In this document: piece by piece, positions 9,544-30,497 of the stretch
Position numbering within the stretch: position 1 is the stretch's first letter
Layout of the letters: every line of letters begins with the position of its first letter
Virus record (IMG/VR): IMGVR_UViG_3300045988_102159
Span: 64,001-128,000 of that record
Length of the DNA stretch: 64,000 bases
Direction: 5' to 3' (one strand)
Source: a virus
The notes under the pieces: generated by a model
What the model was told of the DNA's origin: nothing
What the model saw: the letters and a program-made list of their open reading frames with translations, nothing else
Database searches by the model: none
Position numbers and translations under genes: made by a program

Positions 9544-12500
9544 TTATCTAAACTTATAGGCGTATTGAATTGCTCTATCGTTCAGAGACATAAGCGCAGA
9601 TTCGATTTCTGCTGCATTGTTCGCAGCTGGGAATTCAGCTGTGATATGTACGTTTTGGTCAATTGTCTCAGATGCGTTATTTGCTTTCGCGCCATTTACC
9701 GCTCCAAGAGCAGTAGAAAGTGATTGCGCAAGACTTGTAGATTTAAGTTTGTCCGCAAAAGACCTTACGGATTCAACTGCTGCAAGAATATTTTGCGTAT
9801 CTGTAGCATTAAGGACAAGTTCTTTTTGATGTAGGAATGCAAGTTTACCATTCTTAGCATCCGCTGTCTTGTCAGACCAAGAACCTGTGTAGCCGCCTGT
9901 ATCATATCCGATTAGATTCTTTGAGCTATATTTCATAGAACCGTAATCAACAAGTTTACCAGACCTAGAATATTGGTCGATAATATCCTGAACGTGGCGG
10001 GCAAAAGCGGTACCGTATGCGCCAGTCAGCTTGCTGGAACGTACAGGGTCATTGCCCCAGCCAGAAGCCCAGCCATAAGTCCAAATCGCCTTAGCAATGC
10101 CCCAAGCAGTATCTTCATTGGCGCCAGCTCCACCGCCGCCACCGCCAGATGAAGGACCGTTAGCGTTACCATAGTGTTCATAATTATAGTTCTTTTGCTC
10201 AGCCTGCTTTAGAGCTTCACTTAGATTAGCATTTTCTTGCTCTTTCTTGGCCAGCTTATTAGCAGTTTCATCAGCGAGTTGCTTGAATGCCTGCATATTG
10301 TTGTTAGCATCTGTAATACGATTGGCGTAATCAGTCATCGTAGATTCGGTCTTTTTGACTTCACCAGATACATCTTTAAGAATGTTAATAAATTCTTTTG
10401 TGCTGTCCGCAAGTTCTTTTGTCTTATCCGTTGTGCCGCTGATACTATTGGAAATATCATCAAAGTTAGTCTTGGCTATGTCTGCGATAGTCTTTGTACC
10501 ATCCGCATAATCTTTACCAGCTTGCGTCAAATCACCAAGCATCTTATCAGTGTCGGCTTTGAACTGGTCCATATTCTGTAACCAAGAGGTCAAAGAAGTA
10601 GACCAACGTGTATCAATCTGGTCAAAAGCATCGGTACTACCATTAACAATCTGGTCGTATACGTCTTGTAGATTATCTTTGTTCTCGCCAGTAAGCATAT
10701 CGCACATGCCGATGAAATCATTGATAATGTTCTTCTGGGATGTGCTTAGCTGTTCACTGGTTCCAGCGAGATATTCTTTGAGTGAGTCAATGATGGCCTG
10801 CGTTCTCTTAGTCTTCTCTTCAAGAGACAGATTAGCATTGTTCCAAATGTCATTGACTGTAGACTGGGCATCCTGTAGAGCAGACAGTGAATCCGCCTGA
10901 GTTTGCTTCATCTGGTCTTTAGACATATTGTATGCGTTGTTCTGTGCATCTAGAAGGTCAGACTGCGCGGAACGGACATTATCATCATTCGCTGTATAGA
11001 CATATGAATAGTTACCCTGAGTATCCCTGCGAAGTTTCATTTGAGACTTATTGCGCTGGGCTTCTTCAAGTGCAATTTGCTTCTGTAAGATTTCAAGCTG
11101 TGCATTTGCATAGTTTACATCATATTCAGATAGCTTAGTCTTATCACGCAGATATTCAAGCTGTTCTTTCATCTGTGCTGAAATCTTTTGCTGGATAGCC
11201 AAATCATTTGAACCATCCAAGAGGTCAAGATACTTGCTCTGTAGCTTTTGGATGTTATAGGATTTATTAACGTCATCGAGATAGTAATCAGCGTTGCGAT
11301 TGATTAGCTCCCACTGTGTATTCATCCAATCGAGGTCAGTGCCGACAGCTTTGGTTCCCCATGCTTTAGTAATCTTTGAAACTGTATTTGAATACTGCTT
11401 TTGTAGATTCTCTAAGGAGTTTTGAATAAGGTCATTAATGTCAGAAGTAGCATCTTTAATCTTGTCAGATACTTCATTCCACTCTTCCGAACCTTCTTTC
11501 ATGGAGCCAAGCATATCTTTCCAAATATCACGTTGCTGCATTAACTCATTCAACTGTGCTTTGTAATTATTCTGCTGCGCGCCAAGGATGGTATTTAAAT
11601 CATCGTAAGACTCTTCGCCATGTAGAAGTTCTGTAATATCTAACCAATGTTCAAGTTCATCTGTGATAGCTTCATACTGGTCTTTACGTCTATCCATCTT
11701 ATCGCTAATATCATCAATCATATCCATAACATTGTCATGGAGACTTTCAATTAATGACCAATAGTCCTGAGCAAGTCCTGCGGCCTGTTCATATACTGTC
11801 TTAGCCACGTCATAGAGGTCTGCGGAATTCTCACCGAAAATATCAGATTTACCAGTCTCTTCAAACTGCTTCATCTGAGCGTTAATATCAGTTAGATTCT
11901 TCATAGACATATCGAAATAACCAGTGCCGTAGTAGTCTACACTCTTGTCACCATTGAGCGCACGCTGTTTGGCAGCTTTAAGTTCCTCTACGCGGCCTGC
12001 TGACCATTTCTTGTATGCGTCAGATGCGCCTTTAGCATTTGCAGCATCCTCTTGCTTCTTGATAAGATTATCGTAGTATTCGTCAACGCTCATTGTTGCA
12101 ACATCAAAATATTTGCCGAGTTTGGCAACATTATCTGCTGCTTCTTGATAAGGCGTTAGCTGAATACCGCGATTGAACGCACGGTCGAAATCAACTAGAC
12201 TTTCTTGAATATCTTTAAGATTATCAAGCGATTCAATTTGAGTCTTTAATACGTTGATACGCAGGTCTTCAATTTCATCATTGAGGTCTTCAATTTGCTG
12301 GATTGTATCTCTTAAATCACTTGAAATCAAAGTGTCATAACGCTGATATAAAGTCTTAAATTTATCAAGGTTATCATTAGCCGCGTCAATTTGGTCATTA
12401 ATAGCATCTTGAGCTTCTTCTGTACCAGCCGCATTATATTGGTTAATAAGATTATTAACATTATCAATTAATCCTTGATGAATCTTTGCATAGTTAGAAA

Positions 12501-15500
12501 TATAACCTTCATCATCAAATTGAATACCATATCCAGATAATTTAGATTGCAGTTCATTCATTTCATCATTCTGGATACTTAACTTTTCTTTCTGTAAGTC
12601 AATTTGACGTTTTAAAAGTGAAGTCTGCTTAGAAAGATTCTCAACTAATTTATCACCAGTTAAGCGTTCCTGCTCTTTATTGATACGTTCATAGTCATTT
12701 GCGATTGCTTCAAGAAGTGTATTAACACGTTCATAACGGTCAATTTCATCATCAAGAGCTTCTTTAGTATCAGGAGTGAAGGAGCCACCGCCACCTCCAC
12801 CACCGCCGCCACCTCCGCCGCCTGAGCCAGACGAAGGAAATCCAAAGTTTGACGGTGGCACAGCGCCACCAACACCAGAAGGCGCCCAATCTTTAATGCT
12901 AGGAGTTGAAGACCCAAATAGTGAGCTTAGACCCTTTGCAAGTTGCTTAGAATGTTCTTTAATAGATGCTTGCGAACCTGTAGTAGCATTTGACCAAGTA
13001 GATTTGCCAGTAAATTTATTAACGTATTCTTCTTGAACAATTCCGTCAGCAGTAGTTCTTGTTTTACCAGTAGAAGTAAGATTCTTATTTCTGCTTGCAG
13101 CAGAACCATTAGAAGTAGAGTTATTGGTTCCTTTGATGTGCATCTTAAAGTTTGGAACAGTAATGGTACCTACTTTGTCTGTACCTTTTCCATCCTCGGT
13201 AGACTTAATATCATAGGTAGAAGCTGTAACTTCTTCTGTACTACTGCTAACGTCACCATCAATGCCACCAAACATAGCCATAATATCAGAAATAATACCT
13301 GATATGCCATCTGCCATATTTGAAACTGCGCCTTCGGCTTCTGCCATTGTTCCTTGCATCGCCGCACCAGCAACTTCACTATTGGACATCATAGCTTTTG
13401 CTAAGCCCTGTCCTGTAGTAAGCATGGTATATGCTTGGTCAAGTGTCATTGCTCCAGTAGACGCAATTGAAGCAGCTGTGTTTTTCGCGGCATCGGTATT
13501 TGTCTGATAAAAAGTTGTCATTGAACTAGCTAAGCCAGAAATGGTATCAGCATATTGCTCTTTAATGCCACCCATTTCATTTGTTGCGCTAGTAGCTACT
13601 TTACCAGTATCCTCAAATACTTCATTAATTTTTTCAAAATTGTCTGTAACAAAATTATTAAAATCAGCAGCAGCATCAAGATTTTTCATGCTCTTGGCTA
13701 GTTTATTAATTTGTTTGGCGGCATCTCTCTGCTTTTTTGACATACCAGCAGTAACATTGCTAATATCCCTAGAATTCTTAATTTGCTCAACTTGTTCATC
13801 AGTTAAACCACTAGTTGCCTGTTCCATTTTAATAGATTGCTGTGCAGCTTTTTTCATTGTATTGGAATACTGAGTAACATTCATTTTGCCACTCTTGAAC
13901 TGCTTATTAGCTTGCTGCAAGCCAGTATACAGTTCATTTGTCATAATCTGAGCAAAATTAGAAATATCATCATCGTTTAATACGTCAGCAAGTTTCTGAC
14001 CGCTGTTAACAGCGTTATCAATTTTGCTTGCTAAAGTATCAAAACCAGAATTTAACCTATCTAAGAAATCTGTGTTTGAAATAGCGCCATTAGTAAGTAA
14101 GTCATTAAGTTGTTGTATTTCTTGAAGTGGTTGTTGTAAATCAAGATTATTATTAGAAAGGTTCTGGTATGCCGCAAGAATGTCTGTATTCGCTTGAGAC
14201 ATATTAATGGCTTCGCCAGTTGCTTCTTTCATCGCAGCGGTCTGTTCACGTGTTTTTTGTGTCCACTGTTCAACCGCACGCTGATTCAGCTGATATTGGT
14301 CGCCAACCTTTTGCAAGAATTCAACATACCCTGGATGTTCTACCATAATATTAGCGGCTTCATCTTCTGTAAAACCACCGTTCTTTTGGTAAGCAGTTTG
14401 ATAGTCTTCAAGAACGTCTTTCATTGAAGACTTGCTCTTGACCGCACTCTCTAGGTTATCTGTTGAAATATCAGAACTTAATCCTGCCATAACAGAATTT
14501 TTAACATCGTCCTTGCCACCTTGCATAGCAGAAACGAGTCCGTCGATATATTCTTGTCCAGCTTCTTTTCCAAGAGACTGATATTTAGCTTTAATAGCTT
14601 CATTATCTAGAAGAGAATCTTCAATTTCTTTCTTAGATTTATTAACAAAATCACTCTTATTCAATCCGTCTTCTGCGGCACTAGCCATATTGTCAATAAT
14701 GGTTTTTGCATTAGCAATATTTTCGTCATTTAAGTAATCCTGAGCATCAGAAACATGTTGTTTTGCTTCATCTAGCTTTGACTTTGTATGTTCATACATA
14801 ACATCGTCTTTGCTCATGCTATTAAGTTTTTTCTGATACTTATCTACTTCTTTTTGAGCTTTAGCAGATGCTTCTGTAACATTACCGATTTTCTCTTGGA
14901 TAGATAATCCGCTAGTATCTTGACCAATCCAATTTGTAGTTAAACCAGCCTGATTGCTTAAAAAGTCATTCTCAAATGCAATTCTAGCGGCATTATTAAC
15001 AAAAGGCGTATAAGTAGAAGCTCCTTTATCTAGTGCAGTTAAAGCTTGCTTACCTTGTGACGCGGCTAATTCTTTAGATGCCGTACTAGCTTTACTAATT
15101 TTTTCGGCTAAAGTATCAAAGTCTCCTGAATTTTCAAGCGCCTTACCACCCGCGATGTCAAGAGAATCAATTAGATTATCAGTAGCACTCTTTAATTCAT
15201 CAGTAACTTCCCCAGTTTGCTTATACGAAGCATATGCCGCATCAAAGGAAGAGGTATCAACAGATGCCATCTGTTGAGTATTTGTATATGTCTCAACTTG
15301 TTTGTCTCTTTCAGCTTGATTTTTTTGATGAAGAAAATTGAGCAAAGCGCCACCAGCGGTAGCGATTCCAATAGTTGCCATACCAAGAGGACTACTTAAA
15401 CCTTCGATAAGCGCTTTAAATACTTGAAGACCAGCAGATGCAATTTTTGCTCCTGCACCAAAAGCCTTAAACTTAATAGTAGTTGCTGTAAGTCCATTCG

Positions 15501-17373
15501 CAAAAGAGCCAAGTTGCATTGAATCTAATGCTGTTTGCATTTTTGCAACTTCATTTGTTTTAATGGATGCAAAAAGGTTTCCAAAATCTAACTTTGATGC
15601 TTCTTTAAGCTCAATAAAACTAGAAATCAACTGTGGAACAGTCATAGAAAGATTCATTATAGTCTGTTCAACTTTTTCTCCAGTAGTTAAATCAGCATTT
15701 GCCCATATAGAACCTAAGTTTTGGAAAGATTGCCAAGCAAAACTAAGTTGCCCAATAGCAGCTGTAGCTTGAACAATATTTTGTACGTCCATTTGCTTTT
15801 TCAGCGTATCTTCAAGACCTTCGTTTTGACCTATAACTCCTCCAAGTACAGCATGTGCGCCAGTAACTTTTTGATTTTTACGGGTCAAATCGCCAGCTGA
15901 ACCTACAGCAACACGACTTTTAACTGATGGATTATTTGCTTTATCTAAAGCCCCTTCTGCTGTTTGGTAAACTTCATTCAAATATTCTTGAAGTTCATCT
16001 ATTAAACCTAAACCTTCACCTAAATTATCAGAATTTAAACCATTCTTTTTACCATTAGCAAGTATTGAAAGTTGACGTAATACTTTAATAACTTTATAAA
16101 TCGGCTGTAAACATTCAGTAGCTTGTTCATCTAACACTGCAAAAATAGAATCTTTTCCTGCAATATTAGTTTCAGTTATACCGTAGGCTTTAAGTAACTT
16201 TTTAGTATCATTATATATAATTCGTAAGCTTGACCGACCATCTGTAGCAATTTTTGTATTGTCAGAATCAGCACCAAGTGCAGCAATTTTATCACGATGT
16301 TTTGGAATGGTTACTGAACTAATACCAGAAGATTCATTTGCAATTCCTTGGAGTCTTTGCTTTGCTTCGTTGGAAGAAATATTTTTATATAAATCTTCTC
16401 TGCCAGCATTTACATTGTTATAATACTCTTGAGTACCTCTTGCTTGAAGGACTCCATTTTCGTCTCTTAAAAGCTGAATATATTCTTTATATTCACCAGT
16501 TGCCGCGCCAATAGCCATATTAGTTTCATTAACGGATTCACGAAGTTTGGCTTCTGCATCAGTAACGCCATTAATTGCGTGGCTTGTGTCAATAAGTAGT
16601 TTATTATATTGTGTTTGCTGTTCATTGCTCATGACTGATTGGTAATTTGTTCCAACATCAATCATATTTTTCAACGGGTCTAAAGACTTATCGTCAATCT
16701 TTTGATAACCCATTGCGTTAAGTTTTTCTTTTCTTACTTTGGCATTATTTTCTTTAATCTGCCCAAGTGAGAAATTCTGTGCCATCGCTGTTAAACCATG
16801 TGCTATCTGTTTACTAAATACTCTTGAAGCAGTAGCACCAAACAAAGTTAGTGCGGCAGAACCGCCACCAATAGAATCTATCAATTTCTGCATTAAATCT
16901 AATGCAGTAGATAATCCATCAATGAATCCATAAAAATCAGAAGAATTGCCAAGACTATTGATAATACCTTCAAAAGTAGTCTGTAATTTATTTAATTTTC
17001 CTTGTAATGAATCAACATACTTTTCATTCATTACATCTAGCGTACCGCTAGCATTTTCAGAACCAGCCTTATATTGATTATATAAGTCTGAACGATTCAT
17101 CAATGCTTCAAAACGTGTAAGCTGGAATTTACCAGCAAGCGTTTGACCTACGGCAGCTTTTTGCGTAGCATCAATAGAATCCCAAACTTTCATAAGGTCT
17201 TCCATGATGTTACCAACACCACGCATCTTTCCATCGCCGTCTGTGACTTGTACACCAATTTTCTCTAATGTGGATGTGACTTTTCCTAAGTCTACTCCGT
17301 CGTCTAGAGTCTTACCCATTGATAGGTCTGAAAAGCGTGCATAAAGTGTCTTTAATCCATTACCGATTTGTTC
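9544..17373 (-). CDS. Tape measure protein, exon 2 (2609 codons)
   Basis: Comprises the 2591-aa ORF plus 18 in-frame codons upstream of its first Met (EQIGNGLKTLYARFSDLS-MGKT...). These continue the TP901-type TMP core begun in exon 1. The C-terminal GYDTGGYTGSW...GKLAFLHQKELVLN pattern is typical of Firmicutes siphophage TMPs. A 13xGly tract lies at 12784-12822. Confidence 0.8.
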   Translation of the reverse strand, partial: EQIGNGLKTLYARFSDLSMGKTLDDGVDLGKVTSTLEKIGVQVTDGDGKMRGVGNIMEDLMKVWDSIDATQKAAVGQTLAGKFQLTRFEALMNRSDLYNQYKAGSENASGTLDVMNEKYVDSLQGKLNKLQTTFEGIINSLGNSSDFYGFIDGLSTALDLMQKLIDSIGGGSAALTLFGATASRVFSKQIAHGLTAMAQNFSLGQIKENNAKVRKEKLNAMGYQKIDDKSLDPLKNMIDVGTNYQSVMSNEQQTQYNKLLIDTSHAINGVTDAEAKLRESVNETNMAIGAATGEYKEYIQLLRDENGVLQARGTQEYYNNVNAGREDLYKNISSNEAKQRLQGIANESSGISSVTIPKHRDKIAALGADSDNTKIATDGRSSLRIIYNDTKKLLKAYGITETNIAGKDSIFAVLDEQATECLQPIYKVIKVLRQLSILANGKKNGLNSDNLGEGLGLIDELQEYLNEVYQTAEGALDKANNPSVKSRVAVGSAGDLTRKNQKVTGAHAVLGGVIGQNEGLEDTLKKQMDVQNIVQATAAIGQLSFAWQSFQNLGSIWANADLTTGEKVEQTIMNLSMTVPQLISSFIELKEASKLDFGNLFASIKTNEVAKMQTALDSMQLGSFANGLTATTIKFKAFGAGAKIASAGLQVFKALIEGLSSPLGMATIGIATAGGALLNFLHQKNQAERDKQVETYTNTQQMASVDTSSFDAAYASYKQTGEVTDELKSATDNLIDSLDIAGGKALENSGDFDTLAEKISKASTASKELAASQGKQALTALDKGASTYTPFVNNAARIAFENDFLSNQAGLTTNWIGQDTSGLSIQEKIGNVTEASAKAQKEVDKYQKKLNSMSKDDVMYEHTKSKLDEAKQHVSDAQDYLNDENIANAKTIIDNMASAAEDGLNKSDFVNKSKKEIEDSLLDNEAIKAKYQSLGKEAGQEYIDGLVSAMQGGKDDVKNSVMAGLSSDISTDNLESAVKSKSSMKDVLEDYQTAYQKNGGFTEDEAANIMVEHPGYVEFLQKVGDQYQLNQRAVEQWTQKTREQTAAMKEATGEAINMSQANTDILAAYQNLSNNNLDLQQPLQEIQQLNDLLTNGAISNTDFLDRLNSGFDTLASKIDNAVNSGQKLADVLNDDDISNFAQIMTNELYTGLQQANKQFKSGKMNVTQYSNTMKKAAQQSIKMEQATSGLTDEQVEQIKNSRDISNVTAGMSKKQRDAAKQINKLAKSMKNLDAAADFNNFVTDNFEKINEVFEDTGKVATSATNEMGGIKEQYADTISGLASSMTTFYQTNTDAAKNTAASIASTGAMTLDQAYTMLTTGQGLAKAMMSNSEVAGAAMQGTMAEAEGAVSNMADGISGIISDIMAMFGGIDGDVSSSTEEVTASTYDIKSTEDGKGTDKVGTITVPNFKMHIKGTNNSTSNGSAASRNKNLTSTGKTRTTADGIVQEEYVNKFTGKSTWSNATTGSQASIKEHSKQLAKGLSSLFGSSTPSIKDWAPSGVGGAVPPSNFGFPSSGSGGGGGGGGGGGGGSFTPDTKEALDDEIDRYERVNTLLEAIANDYERINKEQERLTGDKLVENLSKQTSLLKRQIDLQKEKLSIQNDEMNELQSKLSGYGIQFDDEGYISNYAKIHQGLIDNVNNLINQYNAAGTEEAQDAINDQIDAANDNLDKFKTLYQRYDTLISSDLRDTIQQIEDLNDEIEDLRINVLKTQIESLDNLKDIQESLVDFDRAFNRGIQLTPYQEAADNVAKLGKYFDVATMSVDEYYDNLIKKQEDAANAKGASDAYKKWSAGRVEELKAAKQRALNGDKSVDYYGTGYFDMSMKNLTDINAQMKQFEETGKSDIFGENSADLYDVAKTVYEQAAGLAQDYWSLIESLHDNVMDMIDDISDKMDRRKDQYEAITDELEHWLDITELLHGEESYDDLNTILGAQQNNYKAQLNELMQQRDIWKDMLGSMKEGSEEWNEVSDKIKDATSDINDLIQNSLENLQKQYSNTVSKITKAWGTKAVGTDLDWMNTQWELINRNADYYLDDVNKSYNIQKLQSKYLDLLDGSNDLAIQQKISAQMKEQLEYLRDKTKLSEYDVNYANAQLEILQKQIALEEAQRNKSQMKLRRDTQGNYSYVYTANDDNVRSAQSDLLDAQNNAYNMSKDQMKQTQADSLSALQDAQSTVNDIWNNANLSLEEKTKRTQAIIDSLKEYLAGTSEQLSTSQKNIINDFIGMCDMLTGENKDNLQDVYDQIVNGSTDAFDQIDTRWSTSLTSWLQNMDQFKADTDKMLGDLTQAGKDYADGTKTIADIAKTNFDDISNSISGTTDKTKELADSTKEFINILKDVSGEVKKTESTMTDYANRITDANNNMQAFKQLADETANKLAKKEQENANLSEALKQAEQKNYNYEHYGNANGPSSGGGGGGAGANEDTAWGIAKAIWTYGWASGWGNDPVRSSKLTGAYGTAFARHVQDIIDQYSRSGKLVDYGSMKYSSKNLIGYDTGGYTGSWSDKTADAKNGKLAFLHQKELVLNATDTQNILAAVESVRSFADKLKSTSLAQSLSTALGAVNGAKANNASETIDQNVHITAEFPAANNAAEIESALMSLNDRAIQYAYKFR

Positions 17374-17739
17374 CTTGTGTCTTAAACTCGGTCGTTAATC
17401 GAGTCCATATATAAATCCTATATGCTTCTCGTTTCCAAGAAGAAGAGACTATATTTTCTATAAAAATAGAACATTCTTTCGGATAGACTTCTATCCTATC
17501 AGAGCCAATCCTGATAGTCGTTGAACCTTTTACTAAATAGCAAAGTGGCTGCGGATTATCCAATTTTTATATCTTTTTACTATACCTAAGACATTACTCT
17601 TCGCCAATATTATATCACTATAATATTTTAGTAATATAAAACTCTAAGGATTTTCCCGCAATTTAATATTTTTCTTATAATTTAAATTATAAGCCCAATA
17701 TTTTCACTTATATATTTTAAGCAACAAGTAAAATCTTTT
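17374..17739 (-). mobile_element. Group I intron in tape measure gene (~366 nt, no ORF of note)
   Basis: Minus strand carries AAUUGCGGGAAA (rc 17653-17663), CCGCAGCC, GUUCAACGACUA (rc 17515-17526) and AAUAUAGUCUC. A G precedes exon 2 (GAACAAAUC). The 5' junction was chosen after GCCCCU. A P1 helix AAGCCC/GGGCUU is visible, but its register leaves +/-2 nt of doubt. Confidence 0.8.
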
Positions 17740-18708
17740 AGGGGCTTCTCGCGTAACGGATTCAATTGTCGCAATCTGGGCGTTTAATTGGTCTGTAGAA
17801 ACTCCAAGCGTAGCTGCCGCTGATGCAGCTTTCTGGGATGCTTCTGCCAACTCTCCAACATCCGCAGCAGAAATATTTGCTACGTTAGCCCAAGAGTCTA
17901 GTGCAGCATTAAGTTTATCAATATTATTATCAAGACCATAAGCATTCATGTATGCTGTGATTTGGTCCGACGTTGTAGCAGTGTCTTGTTGAGAGGCATT
18001 AGCTAATTTAGTTGACATCTCCGCAAGCTGCTGAGATTTGTTTAGGTCAAAACCTTGCTGGCCGAAGATAAGGGTACTATTCGTCATAGCAACAGTTGTA
18101 GAGCCAAGAGCCTTTGCAGCTTCATTAGCCTGCTTAGCATACTGAACCATCGAGTCACGTGAATAGTCAGTAACAAGCATAATTTGTGTCAGCGAATCAT
18201 CAAGGTCTTTTGCATATTCAACAGATTGACGAATAGAATCAGTAACGCCGTTAAAGGCGCTTGACATAATACCCCAACGGACTGTGTTGCCCATTGTGTT
18301 AAATAATTTATCTACCATTGAGCTGGTACTTTTGATACCAGTATCAATTTTACCCAATTGAGCAAGAACGTCTGTAAAGGCAATTTTACCAGTAGACTCT
18401 GCCATAGAAAATGAATTTTGCAGATTACGTAATGAAAGTCCACTCTCATTTAGCTGGCTAGTCAACTTTGTCATATCGAGCATTCCAATTTTAGTGTTAA
18501 AGCTCGAATTTAATGCTTTCTGAAATTTTTGAATATTGTTGATAGCCGCAGAAGCTTGCGTATTATCAATAATATCCCGAGACTGCATTTCCTTTAGCTG
18601 AACAGAAACTTTATTAAGCTCAGTCTGTAATTGAGTCAAACCAGAACGGTCTAATGTAGTTCGTAGATTATACTCAATAGTATTTGAATATTTACTAATG
18701 GTAATCAC
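17740..18708 (-). CDS. Tape measure protein, exon 1 (323 codons, GTG start)
   Basis: The ORF 17704-18708 makes sense up to ...IATIESVTREAP and then runs into intron sequence (KRFYLLLKIYK*). Coiled-coil N-terminus and TMP core motifs are present. The start is GTG 18708, preceded by a 13-codon uORF that holds the strong RBS. Confidence 0.75.
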
Positions 18709-18837: not shown

Positions 18838-19488
18838 CTAAAGCTCGAACAGAGGACCTTCCTCTTGTTCGCTATCTTCTTTAACCTCTTTATTTTCTGT
18901 TGGTACGGCAGAAAGATAATCAGTAGCAGCTTTAATTGCATCATTGACTTGTTCAGGAGTTGCCATAGCCTTAACTTTAACTTTCTCCTTTAATTTACTT
19001 TCATCCTTTGGTGTATTATTCATACCCCACTTGTCAGCAATTTCAAGAACTGTCTTAGCATCACTTTCACTAAAAGCATCTTTAAAACGATTTACAGTAG
19101 ACTCTACAATATCGCCACTAAAAGTTTGAAATGTAGAGAAAATACCACGAGCAGATTGTAGATATTTAATATAATCATCAAGCCATACGCTACCAATACG
19201 ACCAAGAGCATCCATATCTACCGCAAAGTTTTTATTCATATCTTCGATAGTGCCATCAGCCAGAAGAGCATCCCAAGCATCTAAAATATTATTTGAAACC
19301 ATGCGGCCAACCTCTTCCTTACGGTCAGGATATAGAATAATCGCCGCATACGCATATAGCGCACGTTCAAAAACAAACTGATTGACAAAGCCATTATCCT
19401 CGGCAGACTGTGCCGCAAAATGGATAATGTCATACATGTCTTGAGAGGTTAGCTTTTTAGCCGTCTCTGTTTCAAAAAGAATTGCCAT
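18838..19488 (-). CDS. Possible tail assembly chaperone (216 aa)
   Basis: AAGGAG RBS and an acidic C-terminus. Sits immediately upstream of the TMP. Assignment by position only; no slippery site identified. Confidence 0.35.
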   Translation of the reverse strand: MAILFETETAKKLTSQDMYDIIHFAAQSAEDNGFVNQFVFERALYAYAAIILYPDRKEEVGRMVSNNILDAWDALLADGTIEDMNKNFAVDMDALGRIGSVWLDDYIKYLQSARGIFSTFQTFSGDIVESTVNRFKDAFSESDAKTVLEIADKWGMNNTPKDESKLKEKVKVKAMATPEQVNDAIKAATDYLSAVPTENKEVKEDSEQEEGPLFEL

Positions 19489-19552: not shown

Positions 19553-21079
19553 CTAAGATTTAAAAATATCTGGCGTAAATAAATGGCCCATATTAAGTGT
19601 GATACTAATCTTAGTATTATTCAATACCTTGTAGGCAAGTTTATTACGATTTAACGCCATGCGGAAAACGTTATCTCCTTTCTGTGACGGCATAACTTTA
19701 CTTCTTAAAGTACCTAAGTCAAAACCTTCAACAAGATAATATTTGTTGCCGCCATACTTCAAAATAGTATCTGAATTATCGTAAATCTTTCTAAGAATAT
19801 CATAAATTGAAAATATCTTATTATTTACAATAAGTAAAGTTGAATAATCTCCTTTGATACCACTGCCAGCAATAGCATCCACAAGGCTTAAAGCGCCAGC
19901 TGCCTGTCTGATATTGTACCAATCCATAGCATCAACTGTAGTACCAAGAGCACCGACAAGACTATATCCATATTGACCAGCACCGGGCACAAAAGCATTT
20001 AATTTTTTTGCCAACTGCTGATATGTCATACTTCTGGCAACAAATCCTTCAACACCAAGAGCACGAGAACCTGGGCCACTGCCTTGAAATGGCGCACTTT
20101 CACGTAATTTGACATTGCCGCCAAATTCAAGTATTATACCATCTTTATTCCAATAAATATGAACGTCTTCCTTGGACTCTTTACCTTCAAGAGTATCAGT
20201 TATCTGTTGTGCTGTCCAACTTGAATAAAATTTACCATCTGCGGCAGATACAATCTGCTTTATCTTTTCGTCATTTTCCATAATAAGCTGTTGACCTTCA
20301 TTTGCGGCAACATTAATTGCATGTGCTTCTGCCATTTCGTGAACTGTGCCGCCAATAGAGTTGAAAGCAGCAGCGATAGAATCCACAGCAGATTGAAAAC
20401 TATTCTGAATATCCGCAACACCGCCATTGCCAAGAGAAGCAAGAATATCTAAGTTTTCACGTACCTTCTCCATTGCTAAAACCATCTTAGTTTCAGACTC
20501 TTTGACCATTCCCGCACTAATACTTGCGTCTGTTGGAATACCTTGTAAATCTGATGGTACATTTCCATTTGTGTAATAAGCATCTACTAAGCGTGCGGCA
20601 ACTAAAAATTCATAGTTATATGCAAGCGTCCAAATAATATTATTAACAGCTTCATTGACAGCTGTAGTAATGCTCGATACGTGCTCTAAACAGTCCTGCA
20701 CAGATGCATTAAACGCGGAACCAGCATTTGCCAGACTGACACCATCGACAAAAATATCGCCAGATGTACTATATGACTTAGCAATACCTTTGCTGTCAAA
20801 GTTCGCAATATTTTGCATTGCCTTATCAATATTTTGACCTATTACGCCGCCATTTGAAATCCAGTTATCCATCATAGATTTAATCTGTCTACCAGTATAT
20901 TTTTTGCCACTGGCCGCATTCACCTGATTAAATCTCTGAGTAAATGTACTTACTTGGCGTTTCATAATACGGTACATCGTGTCATTATCAATATCGGCTT
21001 GCCCTCTGGCAATAGTATAAGCAAGATACTCTTTACCGCCATTGTATGCTTGGACAGCACGCCAATTGAAATTGCTCAT
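19553..21079 (-). CDS. Tail-module protein (508 aa), function unknown
   Basis: AGGAGG RBS. Lies between the major tail gene and the chaperone-like gene. Confidence 0.6.
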   Translation of the reverse strand: MSNFNWRAVQAYNGGKEYLAYTIARGQADIDNDTMYRIMKRQVSTFTQRFNQVNAASGKKYTGRQIKSMMDNWISNGGVIGQNIDKAMQNIANFDSKGIAKSYSTSGDIFVDGVSLANAGSAFNASVQDCLEHVSSITTAVNEAVNNIIWTLAYNYEFLVAARLVDAYYTNGNVPSDLQGIPTDASISAGMVKESETKMVLAMEKVRENLDILASLGNGGVADIQNSFQSAVDSIAAAFNSIGGTVHEMAEAHAINVAANEGQQLIMENDEKIKQIVSAADGKFYSSWTAQQITDTLEGKESKEDVHIYWNKDGIILEFGGNVKLRESAPFQGSGPGSRALGVEGFVARSMTYQQLAKKLNAFVPGAGQYGYSLVGALGTTVDAMDWYNIRQAAGALSLVDAIAGSGIKGDYSTLLIVNNKIFSIYDILRKIYDNSDTILKYGGNKYYLVEGFDLGTLRSKVMPSQKGDNVFRMALNRNKLAYKVLNNTKISITLNMGHLFTPDIFKS

Positions 21080-24741: not shown

Positions 24742-25353
24742 TTATAAATCTTGCGGCGCAGGCTTAGTATTATCAATATTCTCTGAATCGTCCGCTTCAC
24801 TATGGGAGGAAGAATAGCGTAACATCACGCCACCTAAATATTCATTCAAGACTAGCTGTTGCGCACCTAGGAATTGTAGCTTGCCAATACCAGATAGACG
24901 AGTATCATTCATAATGCCGTCAACATATCCAGCAATCATCCAAGGACGTAACTGATAATCATCTAGTTCCCAATAGTCAAGTTGTGAGATAATTGTAAAG
25001 CTAATAACGCAATTGCGATAGCGAGGATTCTCAGAAGGAGAAAAATCATCAAAGTCTAACATGATATAAGATTTAACCTCTTCATGCTCCCCAAAAGAGA
25101 GTTTAGGAGTAGCCTTAATATATTGATTATCATGTAGGTCTTTAATAGTATATTGTTCAATCTTACGCTGATATTGGTCTTGCGTTTTGTCAAGACAATC
25201 AGGCGTATTGATAATAAGTAATTTTTTTAGCATATCGCTATAAGGTCTACTTTCAACAAAGAGTTTGCGCCAAATGGTTTCTTGGTCTTCTGCGTGTGAA
25301 AGAAAAGTAGACTTATAATTAGTTCGTAAGATATTAGAAGCAACGTGTTTCAT
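24742..25353 (-). CDS. Head-tail joining module protein (203 aa)
   Basis: GGAGG RBS; synteny. Confidence 0.5.
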   Translation of the reverse strand: MKHVASNILRTNYKSTFLSHAEDQETIWRKLFVESRPYSDMLKKLLIINTPDCLDKTQDQYQRKIEQYTIKDLHDNQYIKATPKLSFGEHEEVKSYIMLDFDDFSPSENPRYRNCVISFTIISQLDYWELDDYQLRPWMIAGYVDGIMNDTRLSGIGKLQFLGAQQLVLNEYLGGVMLRYSSSHSEADDSENIDNTKPAPQDL

Positions 25354-27952: not shown

Positions 27953-27982
27953 AAAAAAAGAAGGGACGCAGAGCGCCCCTTC
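27953..27982 (-). terminator. Intrinsic terminator after capsid/beta-helix genes
   Basis: Stem GAAGGGACGC/GCGCCCCTTC followed by 7 T on the minus strand. Confidence 0.7.
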
Positions 27983-27992
27983 CAATAATTTA

Positions 27993-28895
27993 TTATTTGA
28001 AATTAACAACGGGGTCGTTAACTCCATCAGCAAGGATTCCCTGAGTGTCGGCATATACATAATATACCTTATCCATTCCTTCACCTTTCTCCATGAGCTT
28101 CTTAGAGCCACGAACAAGGTTGTCGAAATTGATTGTAAACTTAGAGAAATCTTGCTTGCTGCCAGCCTTAGAATAATCCTGTAGCAGCATAAAAGCAGTA
28201 TAACCATCAGCATTTGGCGTATCACTATTGAATGAATACGTGGTATCCTTAAAATTAAAGATAGCAGAGACATTCTTAGGATTGCTTAGACGAATTGGGT
28301 TATTACTTACGTCAATATCTTCAAATACGTTACCCACAAAGTTTACGGTAGCACCTTCGGCAAGATTATAAAGGCTTACGCCGTTATTCTTTAGCTTACC
28401 CTTGAACGTATTATTCTTAAAGGTGACATCCGCAATATCACGTGCATTGCTGATGCTAAACTCAACCATATTGTAAATATTCTTATCGCCAGCATCGAAT
28501 ACGTTGTTCTCAAATACAATCTTGCCAGAAGTCATGACAGATAGTGCGGTGTGGGTAGTACCTGAAATTTCACTATTCTTTAGCGTGAAAGGCTTCGTAC
28601 CGTTAACCTTGACGGCAAGTGTCTTGTCATTAGCATCTGCGCCAGTAGCTACAAGTTTAACATTATCAAATGTAACTGCTGCATCTGAAACCACTACTGG
28701 TTTTTCAAAGGTTACACCATTACCCTTAACAGTAATATCATTATTAAAAGTTACAGGCTCTTCGATTGCAGCGGTTCCCGCAGGGACAAACAGTGTGCCA
28801 CCAGCGGGAACATTTGCGATTGCTTCTGAGATAGTATCATAATCGCCAGCATTTACCTCGTCTTTCCCAGGTGTGGGAGGTTCTGGGTCAGGCAT
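27993..28895 (-). CDS. Parallel beta-helix repeat domain protein (300 aa), probably made as a C-terminal extension of the capsid protein
   Basis: Repetitive N-x-x-F/V-x-N strands (pectate-lyase-like pattern). No RBS before its ATG. Its frame is open upstream into the capsid gene in the -1 frame, with a Pro-rich linker. Confidence 0.6.
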   Translation of the reverse strand: MPDPEPPTPGKDEVNAGDYDTISEAIANVPAGGTLFVPAGTAAIEEPVTFNNDITVKGNGVTFEKPVVVSDAAVTFDNVKLVATGADANDKTLAVKVNGTKPFTLKNSEISGTTHTALSVMTSGKIVFENNVFDAGDKNIYNMVEFSISNARDIADVTFKNNTFKGKLKNNGVSLYNLAEGATVNFVGNVFEDIDVSNNPIRLSNPKNVSAIFNFKDTTYSFNSDTPNADGYTAFMLLQDYSKAGSKQDFSKFTINFDNLVRGSKKLMEKGEGMDKVYYVYADTQGILADGVNDPVVNFK

Positions 28896-28906
28896 TGGAG
28901 TTGGGT

Positions 28907-29953
28907 TTAGCGAGTTGCTTTTTTTAGTGCTGTGTTCTGATAAGAGCAGATAGAAGGATTAGAGAATACAGCGACACCAAACTTCTTGTAAGTTTGGAGG
29001 TCGGTTGACCAATCGTCATTATCAGAAACTGTACGAACGGCAGTCTGACCCTCGAAGACAATCTTGACAGGCTTTTCGCCAACAGAAGCAAAGATGTAAG
29101 CCTGAGAGGGGTCAACAACCTTTTCGGCATTAGTTTCATCAACCATAGATTGCTGGAGGATGATTACAGGGTGACCCTTATAATCCGCGAAGAAGCCCTT
29201 GCGGAAAAGCTCTTCTTTCATGGAATCAGAAGCCCAGTCAGCAGAAGCAGGCTTCATAGTAGAAGCAAACTCACGAGTGCAGTAGATGGTAGAAGTACCA
29301 TTGCCGTAGGCGTCGGAAATAGCAAGCAGTTCGTCCATCTTAGTCTCGTCAAAGCCAGCGCCGACATACTTGTTAGCAGTAGGTAGCTGTTCGACAGTCT
29401 GTGTAAGAGCCTTTAGAATTTCAGCATAGATGTATTCATCGACACCTTCAAGCATGATATTAGTGAAGTCAGCGAATGAATAACGACCATCAAGGAATTC
29501 CTCAAAGCCAATGCGGATAGCATAGCCAATAGCGCTAGTAGCAACTTCGAGTTCCTTACCATCAAGCATCATTGTCTCATAACGACCAGCAAGGCCGACA
29601 CGAGTTACGAAAGCCTTGGCACGCTTACGAGCAGCTTCAGTAATGCGGAGCTTGAAGACGGCCTTATCGCCCTGAGCGATTGTCTGAACGTCAGCGAACT
29701 GTTCAAATTGCTGCATAACCTTGACGGGAAGAATCTCGTCAATGGTATTCTCAATTAGTTCGTAGACAGCGACCTCGTTGCGACGGAAGAGACGATAATC
29801 GCCAGCAAGTAGATTGAACTGTTCACGAAGAGTACGGTTAACGGTATCAACGTCAAATGATTCCTCGTTGCCATTTACTGAAAAAGTAAGGGGAGCATTC
29901 TTGGTAGCGGCACGAGCGAGCTTTTTAAGTTCGTCAAATTTCATTAGTTCCAT
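28907..29953 (-). CDS. Major capsid protein (348 aa)
   Basis: AAGGAG RBS. Size and position after the scaffold and the small head protein fit a capsid protein. Sequence feel of an HK97-fold capsid protein, not verified. Confidence 0.7.
   Translation of the reverse strand: MELMKFDELKKLARAATKNAPLTFSVNGNEESFDVDTVNRTLREQFNLLAGDYRLFRRNEVAVYELIENTIDEILPVKVMQQFEQFADVQTIAQGDKAVFKLRITEAARKRAKAFVTRVGLAGRYETMMLDGKELEVATSAIGYAIRIGFEEFLDGRYSFADFTNIMLEGVDEYIYAEILKALTQTVEQLPTANKYVGAGFDETKMDELLAISDAYGNGTSTIYCTREFASTMKPASADWASDSMKEELFRKGFFADYKGHPVIILQQSMVDETNAEKVVDPSQAYIFASVGEKPVKIVFEGQTAVRTVSDNDDWSTDLQTYKKFGVAVFSNPSICSYQNTALKKATR
28919..28925 (-). promoter_or_regulatory. A_AAA_AAA slippery heptamer (candidate -1 programmed frameshift site)
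   Basis: Seven A on the coding strand in X_XXY_YYZ register (CUA AAA AAA GCA), 4 codons before the capsid stop. The -1 frame runs stop-free into the beta-helix ORF. Confidence 0.5.
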
Positions 29954-29972
29954 TATCTATCTTACTCCTTTC

Positions 29973-30497
29973 TTATTCAGCGATGACTTGTAGTTTAAGG
30001 CCGGGCTGACCATCAGGCATGGTGGTGAGCTTAGCAACCTTGACGGCTAGACCTTCGCCCTTAGCGCCTTTCTCAAGAACACCATTAGTGCCGGGGACGA
30101 GAACGTCACCTAGGTCATAATCGTCAGCCTTGACGTTATTTGTGGTGAAAATATCACCAGCATACATGCGGAAAACACGAGGTGTCATAACGCCGTCATA
30201 GAAGTCAGACTTCTTCATGGCGTAGTCACGGTGCATCTGCTTACGCTCGTCATAGAGCTTTTCTTCATTGAAGACCATCATCCAAGGGCCTTCACCAGTG
30301 AAGTTAATTTTGCCAGCAGCATAATCGTACTTAACGAAAGTGCCCTGTTCAAGCATTGTAATAGAATCATCAGCGGGGAGCTGACCATAAACGCCACCAC
30401 TGCGGGGAGCAGAGAGGTGGTTAGGCTCGACAACTGAATAATTGTCGTGGCCTGTAAGCTGAACCTTAGTGTCAGCGCGGTCTACATGTAGAGCCAT
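29973..30497 (-). CDS. Small head protein (174 aa), possible decoration/auxiliary capsid protein
   Basis: AGGAGG RBS. Lies between the scaffold and capsid genes. Confidence 0.45.
   Translation of the reverse strand: MALHVDRADTKVQLTGHDNYSVVEPNHLSAPRSGGVYGQLPADDSITMLEQGTFVKYDYAAGKINFTGEGPWMMVFNEEKLYDERKQMHRDYAMKKSDFYDGVMTPRVFRMYAGDIFTTNNVKADDYDLGDVLVPGTNGVLEKGAKGEGLAVKVAKLTTMPDGQPGLKLQVIAE

Follow-up and report, generated by a model that had tools for sequence, protein, structure and literature searches.

The 64,000-nt stretch analyzed here (positions 64,001 to 128,000 of the IMG/VR virus record IMGVR_UViG_3300045988_102159, hereafter the window) comes from a ~140-kb SPbeta-like siphovirus widespread in human gut metagenomes, and carries on its minus strand a major capsid protein gene followed by an open reading frame (ORF) for a parallel beta-helix protein. 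Sequence and comparative evidence suggest that the two are probably fused through −1 ribosomal frameshifting on an A_AAA_AAA heptamer close to the capsid stop codon. In its sequence-level features, the locus conforms to the known class of recoded capsid genes: the upstream gene encodes an HK97-type capsid protein, a heptamer lies in register at its extreme 3′ end, the trans-frame domain is both open and conserved, and the slip site is kept at the nucleotide level. The principle is known, and what is new here is the size and type of the cargo, its occurrence in ~140-kb SPbeta-like gut phages, and the in-frame TGA and TAG codons that occupy the same junction in relatives.

The capsid ORF ends in TAT CAG AAC ACA GCA CTA AAA AAA GCA ACT CGC TAA, in which the run of seven A's (A7) is made of the A of CTA and the two zero-frame AAA codons. 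Three sense codons follow the second AAA before the TAA, so that a slip would occur at codons 343-345 of 348, and this location at the extreme 3′ end would keep the whole capsid fold and add a C-terminal module. The −1 frame is open from position 28958, extends for 308 codons past the site to the stop at 27995..27993, and includes ORF 27993..28895 (300 aa), into which the −1 frame sequence ...TKKSNSLNPTPMPDPEPPTPGKDE... leads directly. After a one-base backward slip, the conceptual product reads ...TALKK-SNSLNPTPMPDPEPPTPGKDEVNAGDYDT..., with ..NTALKKSNSLNPTPMPDPEPP.. as the predicted junction peptide of the fusion (i.e., ..NTALKK followed by SNSLNPTPMPDPEPP..), and the predicted masses are 39.1 kDa for the capsid protein, 71.9 kDa for the 653-aa fusion and 32.3 kDa for the stand-alone ORF. 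An initial annotation of this DNA, made without database searches, had described an in-register A_AAA_AAA near the capsid stop, a stop-free −1 frame running into ORF 27993-28895, a Pro-rich junction linker, and species of ~70, 39 and 32 kDa, all of which agree with the sequence and the computed masses; the distance it gave (“four codons before” the stop) is approximately right.

Within the window, A7 runs are depleted (28 observed vs. 54.5 expected), and only three in-register A_AAA_AAA heptamers lie inside genes in ~16,900 codons. The other two, both on the minus strand (20003-20009 in ORF 19553..21079, and 25222-25228 in ORF 24742..25353), are located mid-gene with −1 frames open for only 13 and 7 codons, and are presumably incidental, as they would lead to truncated products if shifted. 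The A7 arrangement at the capsid end is real and not a chance occurrence. No terminator was found between the capsid gene and the beta-helix ORF, and a strong one follows the latter (Table 1), which indicates that the two are co-transcribed; the AAGGAG motif upstream of the capsid gene (Table 1) would be the sole ribosome-binding site for the pair.

The comparative evidence comes from about 200 related loci (designated by L numbers) gathered from IMG/VR, ENA, Logan, NCBI and JGI assemblies. In a first set of 35 distinct capsid 3′ ends, [C/T]TA AAA AAA was found in register in 14 of the 14 ends with a long −1 ORF and in none of the 21 ends without one (Fisher p = 5e-7, phylogeny ignored), 10 of which still encode Leu-Lys-Lys through codons such as CTC AAG AAG, CTT AAG AAA, CTT AAA AAG or similar. 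Close relatives without the extension, which act as natural controls, are likewise devoid of A7 (L034-37, with CTC AAG AAG, and L175, with CTA AAG AAA TAG). Across 13 lineages, the capsid protein shares 71–99% identity with the window type, as against 27–63% for the extension; all degenerate codons among the 20 upstream of the site vary, whereas the two Lys codons are always AAA and the third position of the Leu codon is always A. The codon 3′ of the heptamer varies as well (GCA, TCA, GCC, GAG, or the stop itself in L057). Exactly seven A's, in the same frame arrangement, were retrieved from 105 of 152 loci, a count in which some contigs from different collections appear more than once. Finally, a −1-frame stop lies immediately 5′ of the A-run in L061, L030, L066 and L132-134, which confines the frame change to about six codons containing the heptamer. 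Overall, the slip site is under selection at the nucleotide level, beyond what the protein sequence would need.

The beta-helix ORF, for its part, has no conserved independent start. The duplex of its ATG (28895) with the anti-Shine-Dalgarno sequence is the second weakest of 67 crude longest ORFs (+1.9 kcal/mol), as opposed to −6 to −14.5 kcal/mol for the capsid gene and neighboring late genes. The initial annotation was correct in reporting no Shine-Dalgarno sequence for this ORF, while the contrast it drew with other genes stands for the neighboring structural genes only. This ATG is replaced by ATT in L012, which belongs to the same species as the window type; ATG, GTG and TTG are all missing from −1-frame codons 1-40 in L026-28 and L030, and no Met is encoded at the junction of L061 and L064-67. 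Gene callers place the start of the homologs at scattered positions, some inside the capsid overlap (“MLLSEYRTKKSNSL”, “MFLSKYCIKKITKP”) and some within a conserved DYDxxxxAIxAVPxGG motif. Between the capsid end and the domain there is always a stretch encoding a Pro-rich linker, which reads in the domain's frame. That the heptamer is kept only with the −1 extension, and that the ATG is lost or absent in relatives, strongly favors recoding, as proposed in the initial annotation, over independent translation of the downstream ORF.

In the proposed mechanism, most ribosomes would stop at the TAA (28909..28907) and yield the 39-kDa capsid protein, and a minority, when their P and A sites hold the Lys codons of 28925..28919, would slip back by one nucleotide, both Lys-tRNAs being able to re-pair perfectly with AAA. 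Translation would then proceed through ...TALKK-SNSLNPTPMPDPEPPTPGKDE- and a flexible Pro-rich linker into the ~290-residue beta-helix, generating a 653-aa, 72-kDa minor capsid protein. This minor form would co-assemble with the major one, leading to a sub-stoichiometric display of beta-helices outside the head. The analysis establishes the layout of the sequence, the two predicted folds, co-transcription, selection on the heptamer at the nucleotide level and the lack of a conserved start for the downstream ORF; we infer the ribosomal nature of the shift, its efficiency, the incorporation of the fusion into virions and the function of the domain.

Several observations weigh against this mechanism or limit its reach. 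No conserved or unusually stable stimulatory hairpin was found in windows of 50, 80 and 120 nt downstream of the site in six lineages (pseudoknots were not explicitly searched), with fold z-scores mostly within ±1.5 (mostly −1.5 to +1.2) and a single strong value (L026, 120 nt, z −5) that is not shared. Likewise, no Shine-Dalgarno-like element was detected within 30 nt 5′ of the heptamer in any lineage examined, and an Rfam scan of 28600..29200 gave no match. Stimulatory elements of this sort, either a hairpin or pseudoknot 5-9 nt past the site or a Shine-Dalgarno-like sequence before it, are common, and not obligatory, in X_XXY_YYZ cassettes. The lineages carrying A7 are probably monophyletic, so that 14 of 14 does not represent 14 independent events. 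As for start codons, lineage A with the exception of L012 has an in-frame ATG 11 nt past the capsid stop, lineage B (L022/23) has a GTG 5 nt past it, and L031-33 have a GTG at +59 preceded by GGAG, which leaves room for some independent or re-initiated translation in those phages. Lastly, A_AAA_AAA is clearly less shifty than A_AAA_AAG in E. coli (PMC5009743). Given this weaker heptamer and the lack of a detected stimulator, a low shift efficiency is to be expected, perhaps in the range of one to a few per cent, which would still place many copies of the fusion on a head built from several hundred subunits.

The same fusion could arise without any ribosomal shift if a host or phage RNA polymerase added one A at A7, generating a minority of A8 messenger RNAs. 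The protein predicted from such transcriptional slippage is identical to the −1 product, the site is a pure homopolymer, the absence of a stimulatory RNA structure fits since none would be needed, and slippage of this kind is used productively in bacteria and insertion sequence elements (PMC5009743). However, the productive bacterial runs described are about 9 A/T long (PMC5009743), and the run here is exactly seven in all 105 loci, with no lineage having lengthened it although AAA AAA AAA would be easily reached. In addition, the constant X_XXY_YYZ register matters to ribosomes and not to polymerases, but the conserved Leu-Lys-Lys also fixes this register. We consider this explanation unlikely.

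Still less probable is a separate 32-kDa protein translated from ATG 28895 or its equivalents through termination-reinitiation, either free or attached non-covalently to the head. The ATG and GTG codons located 11 and 5 nt past the capsid stop in the window and in L022/23, respectively, are suitably placed for coupled re-initiation, which needs no Shine-Dalgarno sequence, and the product is publicly annotated as a separate protein (BFVD A0A8S5VQZ8, 99% identical). Yet the start codon is not conserved among the loci listed above, and independent translation accounts neither for the synonymous-site conservation of A7 and its loss without the extension, nor for a −1 ORF that always overlaps the capsid gene with a Pro-rich linker, nor for the relatives in which the domain lies in frame behind a TGA or TAG with no start codon. 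An origin at the DNA level, i.e., a homopolymer error hiding a true A8, a phase-variable A7/A8 or a decaying downstream ORF, has very little to recommend it: homopolymers are error-prone and mutable, and one extra A would fuse the frames, but the same A7 and frames recur in 105 loci, which derive from many separate samples and assemblies and have capsid identities down to 71%, neither A8 nor A6 was seen (in assemblies, which collapse minor variants), and the extension is both well folded and conserved (see below), making assembly error, pseudogenization and phase variation unlikely.

Ribosomal frameshifting being the preferred reading, we next consider the domain that it would append. The AlphaFold2 (AF2) model of ORF 27993-28895 is a confident three-sheet right-handed beta-helix, i.e., a regular all-beta solenoid of short strands (predicted local distance difference test, pLDDT, of 94.3; predicted template modeling score, pTM, of 0.90), in which only ORF residues 1-5 have a low pLDDT and the first secondary-structure element begins at residue 13. 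The best Foldseek matches (probability 1.0, template modeling, TM, scores of about 0.5) are pectin methylesterases (2nsp, 8tne, 1gq8), the mannuronan epimerase AlgE4 and the Vibrio polysaccharide lyase RbmB, with a polygalacturonase also among the best, followed by lower matches to phage tailspikes and snake adenovirus LH3 (E-values of 4e-3 to 2e-2). This is the pectate-lyase type of beta-helix that had been anticipated from repeated strand motifs. At the sequence level, Pfam matches are sub-threshold (Beta_helix PF13229, 23.7 bits vs. a cut-off of 25.9, 4e-5; Pect-lyase_RHGA_epim PF12708, 20.8 bits vs. a cut-off of 27), with a precomputed PF13229 match on some homologs; a sequence-profile search against the PDB returned no meaningful match for the domain, and tblastn of the ORF against 50,697 GenBank phages returned none at all.

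The domain family comprises 69 homologous clusters in 5.8 billion proteins, nearly all of them right after this capsid gene. An alignment of 22 sequences includes 18 invariant and 42 near-invariant columns, N142, E145, R202, S204, N205 and D240 being among the invariant residues, and these columns, together with a pLDDT of 94, show purifying selection on the extension to maintain a well-folded domain. Distant homologs (30–40% identity) are tail-fiber-like phage proteins and signal-peptide or lipoprotein surface proteins of Clostridia, which indicates a cell-surface or glycan-directed role. The domain most likely binds or cleaves polysaccharide, either a host surface glycan or gut mucin or dietary glycan. 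Among these distant homologs, L143, L145-L147 and L150 carry the domain at the C-terminus of tail-fiber-like proteins (N-terminal YLDYxGLxxYD motif, coiled coil), and L100, L139, L141 (=P0188) and L144 are homologs within surface proteins from Clostridia metagenome-assembled genomes (MAGs), P0188 combining a signal peptide, a Big_2 domain and a beta-helix domain homolog. Searching bacterial genomes with the domain yielded one distant homolog (a surface protein from a Clostridia MAG) and no prophage copy.

The upstream gene product is the major capsid protein, as initially annotated, and has a predicted HK97 fold. Its AF2 model (pLDDT 74.9) gave 322 PDB matches at E ≤ 1e-3 in Foldseek, the top ones all being HK97-type capsids or encapsulins (HK97, phiXacJX1, Che8, encapsulins); a sequence-profile search of the PDB with the capsid protein gave no meaningful match, and the fold comparison alone was informative. 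The protein matches phrog_4088 (8e-57), its homologs carry the precomputed Pfam family PF27364 (YonB), and tblastn retrieved SPbeta-like and related large siphoviruses, including phAss-1, Enterococcus EF1, and Bacillus phages in which the matched gene is annotated as major capsid protein. The gene order is portal (phrog_2739), a YonD_N-type protein, a 174-aa protein and the capsid. The 174-aa protein (29973-30497, minus strand; phrog_4147) has counterparts of 164-177 aa at this position, between the YonD_N-type and capsid genes, in every relative, and possibly serves in head decoration or in connection with a scaffold.

Other relatives show different signals at the same junction. A single in-frame TGA without A7 precedes a window-type beta-helix in L059 and L062 (both at 2423-2425) and L096 (~2414-2416), and an “adhesive” domain of Pectate_lyase_5 type (212-224 aa) in L161-169 (about 2545-2560). 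Overall, these TGA-gated cargoes span 212-314 aa and are located behind a Pro-rich linker, and the junctions are candidates for programmed UGA readthrough of a capsid gene in double-stranded DNA phages. In L062 (2423-2435), the TGA overlaps a strong Shine-Dalgarno-like GGAGGA (gct TGA GGAGGAcag) with no start codon in reach; this motif may influence termination or readthrough, or may be a coincidence.

An in-frame TAG, again without A7, is found at the capsid/linker junction of L068 (2386-2388), L098 (1444-1446), L099 (2554-2556) and L158/L159 (about 2554), the last two with 431 aa in frame behind it. Three proteins considered as uninterrupted capsid-beta-helix fusions (P0001, P0002 and P0013) were rejected as such, the DNA having an in-frame TAG at the junction, which public gene calls render as Gln (code 15); two long homologs (P0010 and P0004) were left out of the junction comparison. 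Neighboring genes on these short TAG-junction contigs have TAA stops and no internal TAG. A relative, phAss-1, has a documented TAG-to-Gln recoding with suppressor transfer RNAs (tRNAs) (PMC10607447), and some of the TAG junctions may accordingly be read by suppressors rather than through leaky termination. Stop-codon reassignment was rejected for the window phage itself, whose capsid gene ends in TAA and whose late genes in the window read intact with code 11, and no tRNA gene was found in the window.

Two further loci, L154 (=L047/L048; about 2575-2590) and L183 (about 2560-2580), have a 114-122-aa −1 ORF past the capsid stop, beginning with LIGPTVTAEDG.. and LVLAAETSTSS.., respectively, and both containing ..ISGTLK[YH]... 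They share an in-register A_AAC_CCT (formally X_XXY_YYZ) just before the stop, which is possibly a second type of slip site with a different and smaller cargo.

Direct fusions without a stop or frame change involve an ~80-aa Big_2 (immunoglobulin-like, Ig-like) domain (L156/L179, 1501-2787, 429 aa), the other uninterrupted additions being short acidic or Pro/Thr tails, and no beta-helix cargo fused without interruption was found among the loci sampled. In the sampled loci, every beta-helix cargo is preceded by a signal through which only some of the ribosomes are expected to pass. Such gating would be expected if a 30-kDa appendage on every subunit blocked assembly, and parallels the practice of engineered display on the frameshift-derived gene 10b product, which limits the cargo to a subset of subunits (PMC13370021). 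More speculatively, the 3′ end of the YonB (SPbeta-type) capsid gene, in gut phages abundant in humans, could be a cargo slot, in which glycan-active beta-helices of 210-430 aa are always gated by interchangeable signals and small Ig-like domains are constitutive. The tentative list of gates would include a −1 slip at A_AAA_AAA and possibly at A_AAC_CCU, an in-frame UGA, and an in-frame UAG, which may be suppressor-read in code-15 relatives. If this tentative proposal is correct, it is the capsid and not the tail that carries a fast-evolving adhesin or depolymerase, in a small and tuned number of copies, and the UAG lineages couple head decoration to the stop-codon reassignment switch of the phage.

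Capsid-gene recoding is known from gene 10 of T7 and T3, Lactobacillus phage A2, and Listeria phages A118 and A500 (−1) and PSA (+1), with added modules that are often Ig-like (Fraser et al. 2006, as cited in PMC5009743) and with −1, +1 or in-frame arrangements alternating among relatives, a pattern attributed to domain shuffling that placed modules in or out of frame (PMC5009743). As in T7 and T3, the window combines an HK97-fold capsid gene, a slip site located a few codons upstream of its stop, and a predicted minority of subunits with an external extension. It differs from them in its slip site, in the lack of a detected stimulator, and in a cargo of about 308 aa that is a beta-helix and nearly doubles the protein. 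The T7 extension is about 50 aa long. It is not an Ig domain, whereas T3 adds an Ig-like one (PMC5009743).

The likeness to A2, A118, A500 and PSA lies in Firmicutes siphoviruses gaining C-terminal capsid (and tail) domains by frameshift, and in a mixture of junction types, which in the YonB family include −1, in-frame TGA, in-frame TAG and direct Big_2 fusions. Their cargo is a small Ig-like domain, in contrast to the large right-handed beta-helix of the pectate-lyase/tailspike class described here, and A2 uses C_CCA_AAA with a downstream stem-loop, no such downstream structure being found at the window site. In-frame stops at the same junction represent an additional route, not listed for phage capsids in the review of these systems (PMC5009743).

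In the single-stranded RNA levivirus Q-beta, UGA readthrough of the coat gene generates A1, so that each virion contains a small number of elongated coat proteins. The relatives gated by TGA (L059, L062, L096 and L161-169) resemble this system in having a potentially leaky coat-gene stop, whereas the coat folds are unrelated and the window would use a frame change rather than readthrough. Right-handed beta-helices are also displayed on virions by snake adenovirus 1 LH3 (5g5o) and by the tailspikes or depolymerases of P22, HK620 and CBA120 (TSP2), and LH3 illustrates that an icosahedral capsid can be decorated with a protein of this fold. These are separate trimers, attached non-covalently or located on tails, unlike the covalent addition through recoding predicted here, and their TM-scores to our model are only 0.2-0.5. 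Finally, lactococcal 936-group phages are described as having a frameshift-derived extension of the major tail protein (MTPe) with carbohydrate-binding modules (PMC6669499). In a Firmicutes siphovirus again, MTPe is comparable in displaying a recoded glycan-binding module sub-stoichiometrically on one of the major polymers of the virion, on the tail tube and with carbohydrate-binding modules there vs. on the capsid and with a beta-helix here.

Known capsid frameshift extensions are mainly short tails or small Ig-like domains, and searches of an open-access library returned no account of a capsid frameshift with a beta-helix or pectate-lyase cargo. This class of domain is usually found on tails, for polysaccharide binding or degradation, and its predicted presence on the head of a widespread gut phage bears on the adhesion of gut phages to mucus, dietary glycans and bacterial capsules. 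The fusion is not evident in current annotations, as the gene calls on every contig looked up consist of either two genes or a single one that runs across a stop codon, and the public entry A0A8S5VQZ8 (BFVD/UniProt) is a stand-alone 300-aa protein. Several apparent recoding solutions at one junction, together with the disappearance of the slip site wherever the cargo is gone, would constitute an unusually clean natural experiment on why large capsid appendages need to be sub-stoichiometric, and the site itself, as a compact and apparently structure-free cassette, could possibly serve for low-copy display on Firmicutes phages.

Table 1. Features of the capsid/beta-helix locus (window coordinates).
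Feature	Position	Strand	Details
Shine-Dalgarno sequence AAGGAG of the capsid gene	29965..29970	minus	From sequence; anti-Shine-Dalgarno duplex −8.5 kcal/mol
Major capsid protein gene (YonB family, predicted HK97 fold)	28907..29953	minus	348 aa, 39.1 kDa; stop TAA 28909..28907
Zero frame and −1 frame both open	28907..28958	minus	52-nt overlap
Slippery heptamer A_AAA_AAA, proposed −1 shift site	28919..28925	minus	Zero-frame CTA AAA AAA GCA
Trans-frame linker SNSLNPTPMPDPEPPTPGKDE	28857..28919	minus	Pro-rich; includes ATG 28895..28893 used by gene callers
Right-handed parallel beta-helix domain (predicted)	27993..28856	minus	About 287 aa; stop 27995..27993
Intrinsic terminator	27959..27983	minus	11-bp stem (7 G-C pairs) and T-run, right after the beta-helix ORF

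Elsewhere on the minus strand, two ORFs are located upstream of a tape-measure-like ORF of 2591 aa (9544..17319), one of 216 aa (18838..19488) and one of 334 aa that begins with GTG (17704..18708). A hairpin with a T-run (about 18,815-18,785) lies between the 216-aa and 334-aa ORFs, and a gap of ~385 nt separates the latter from the tape-measure gene.

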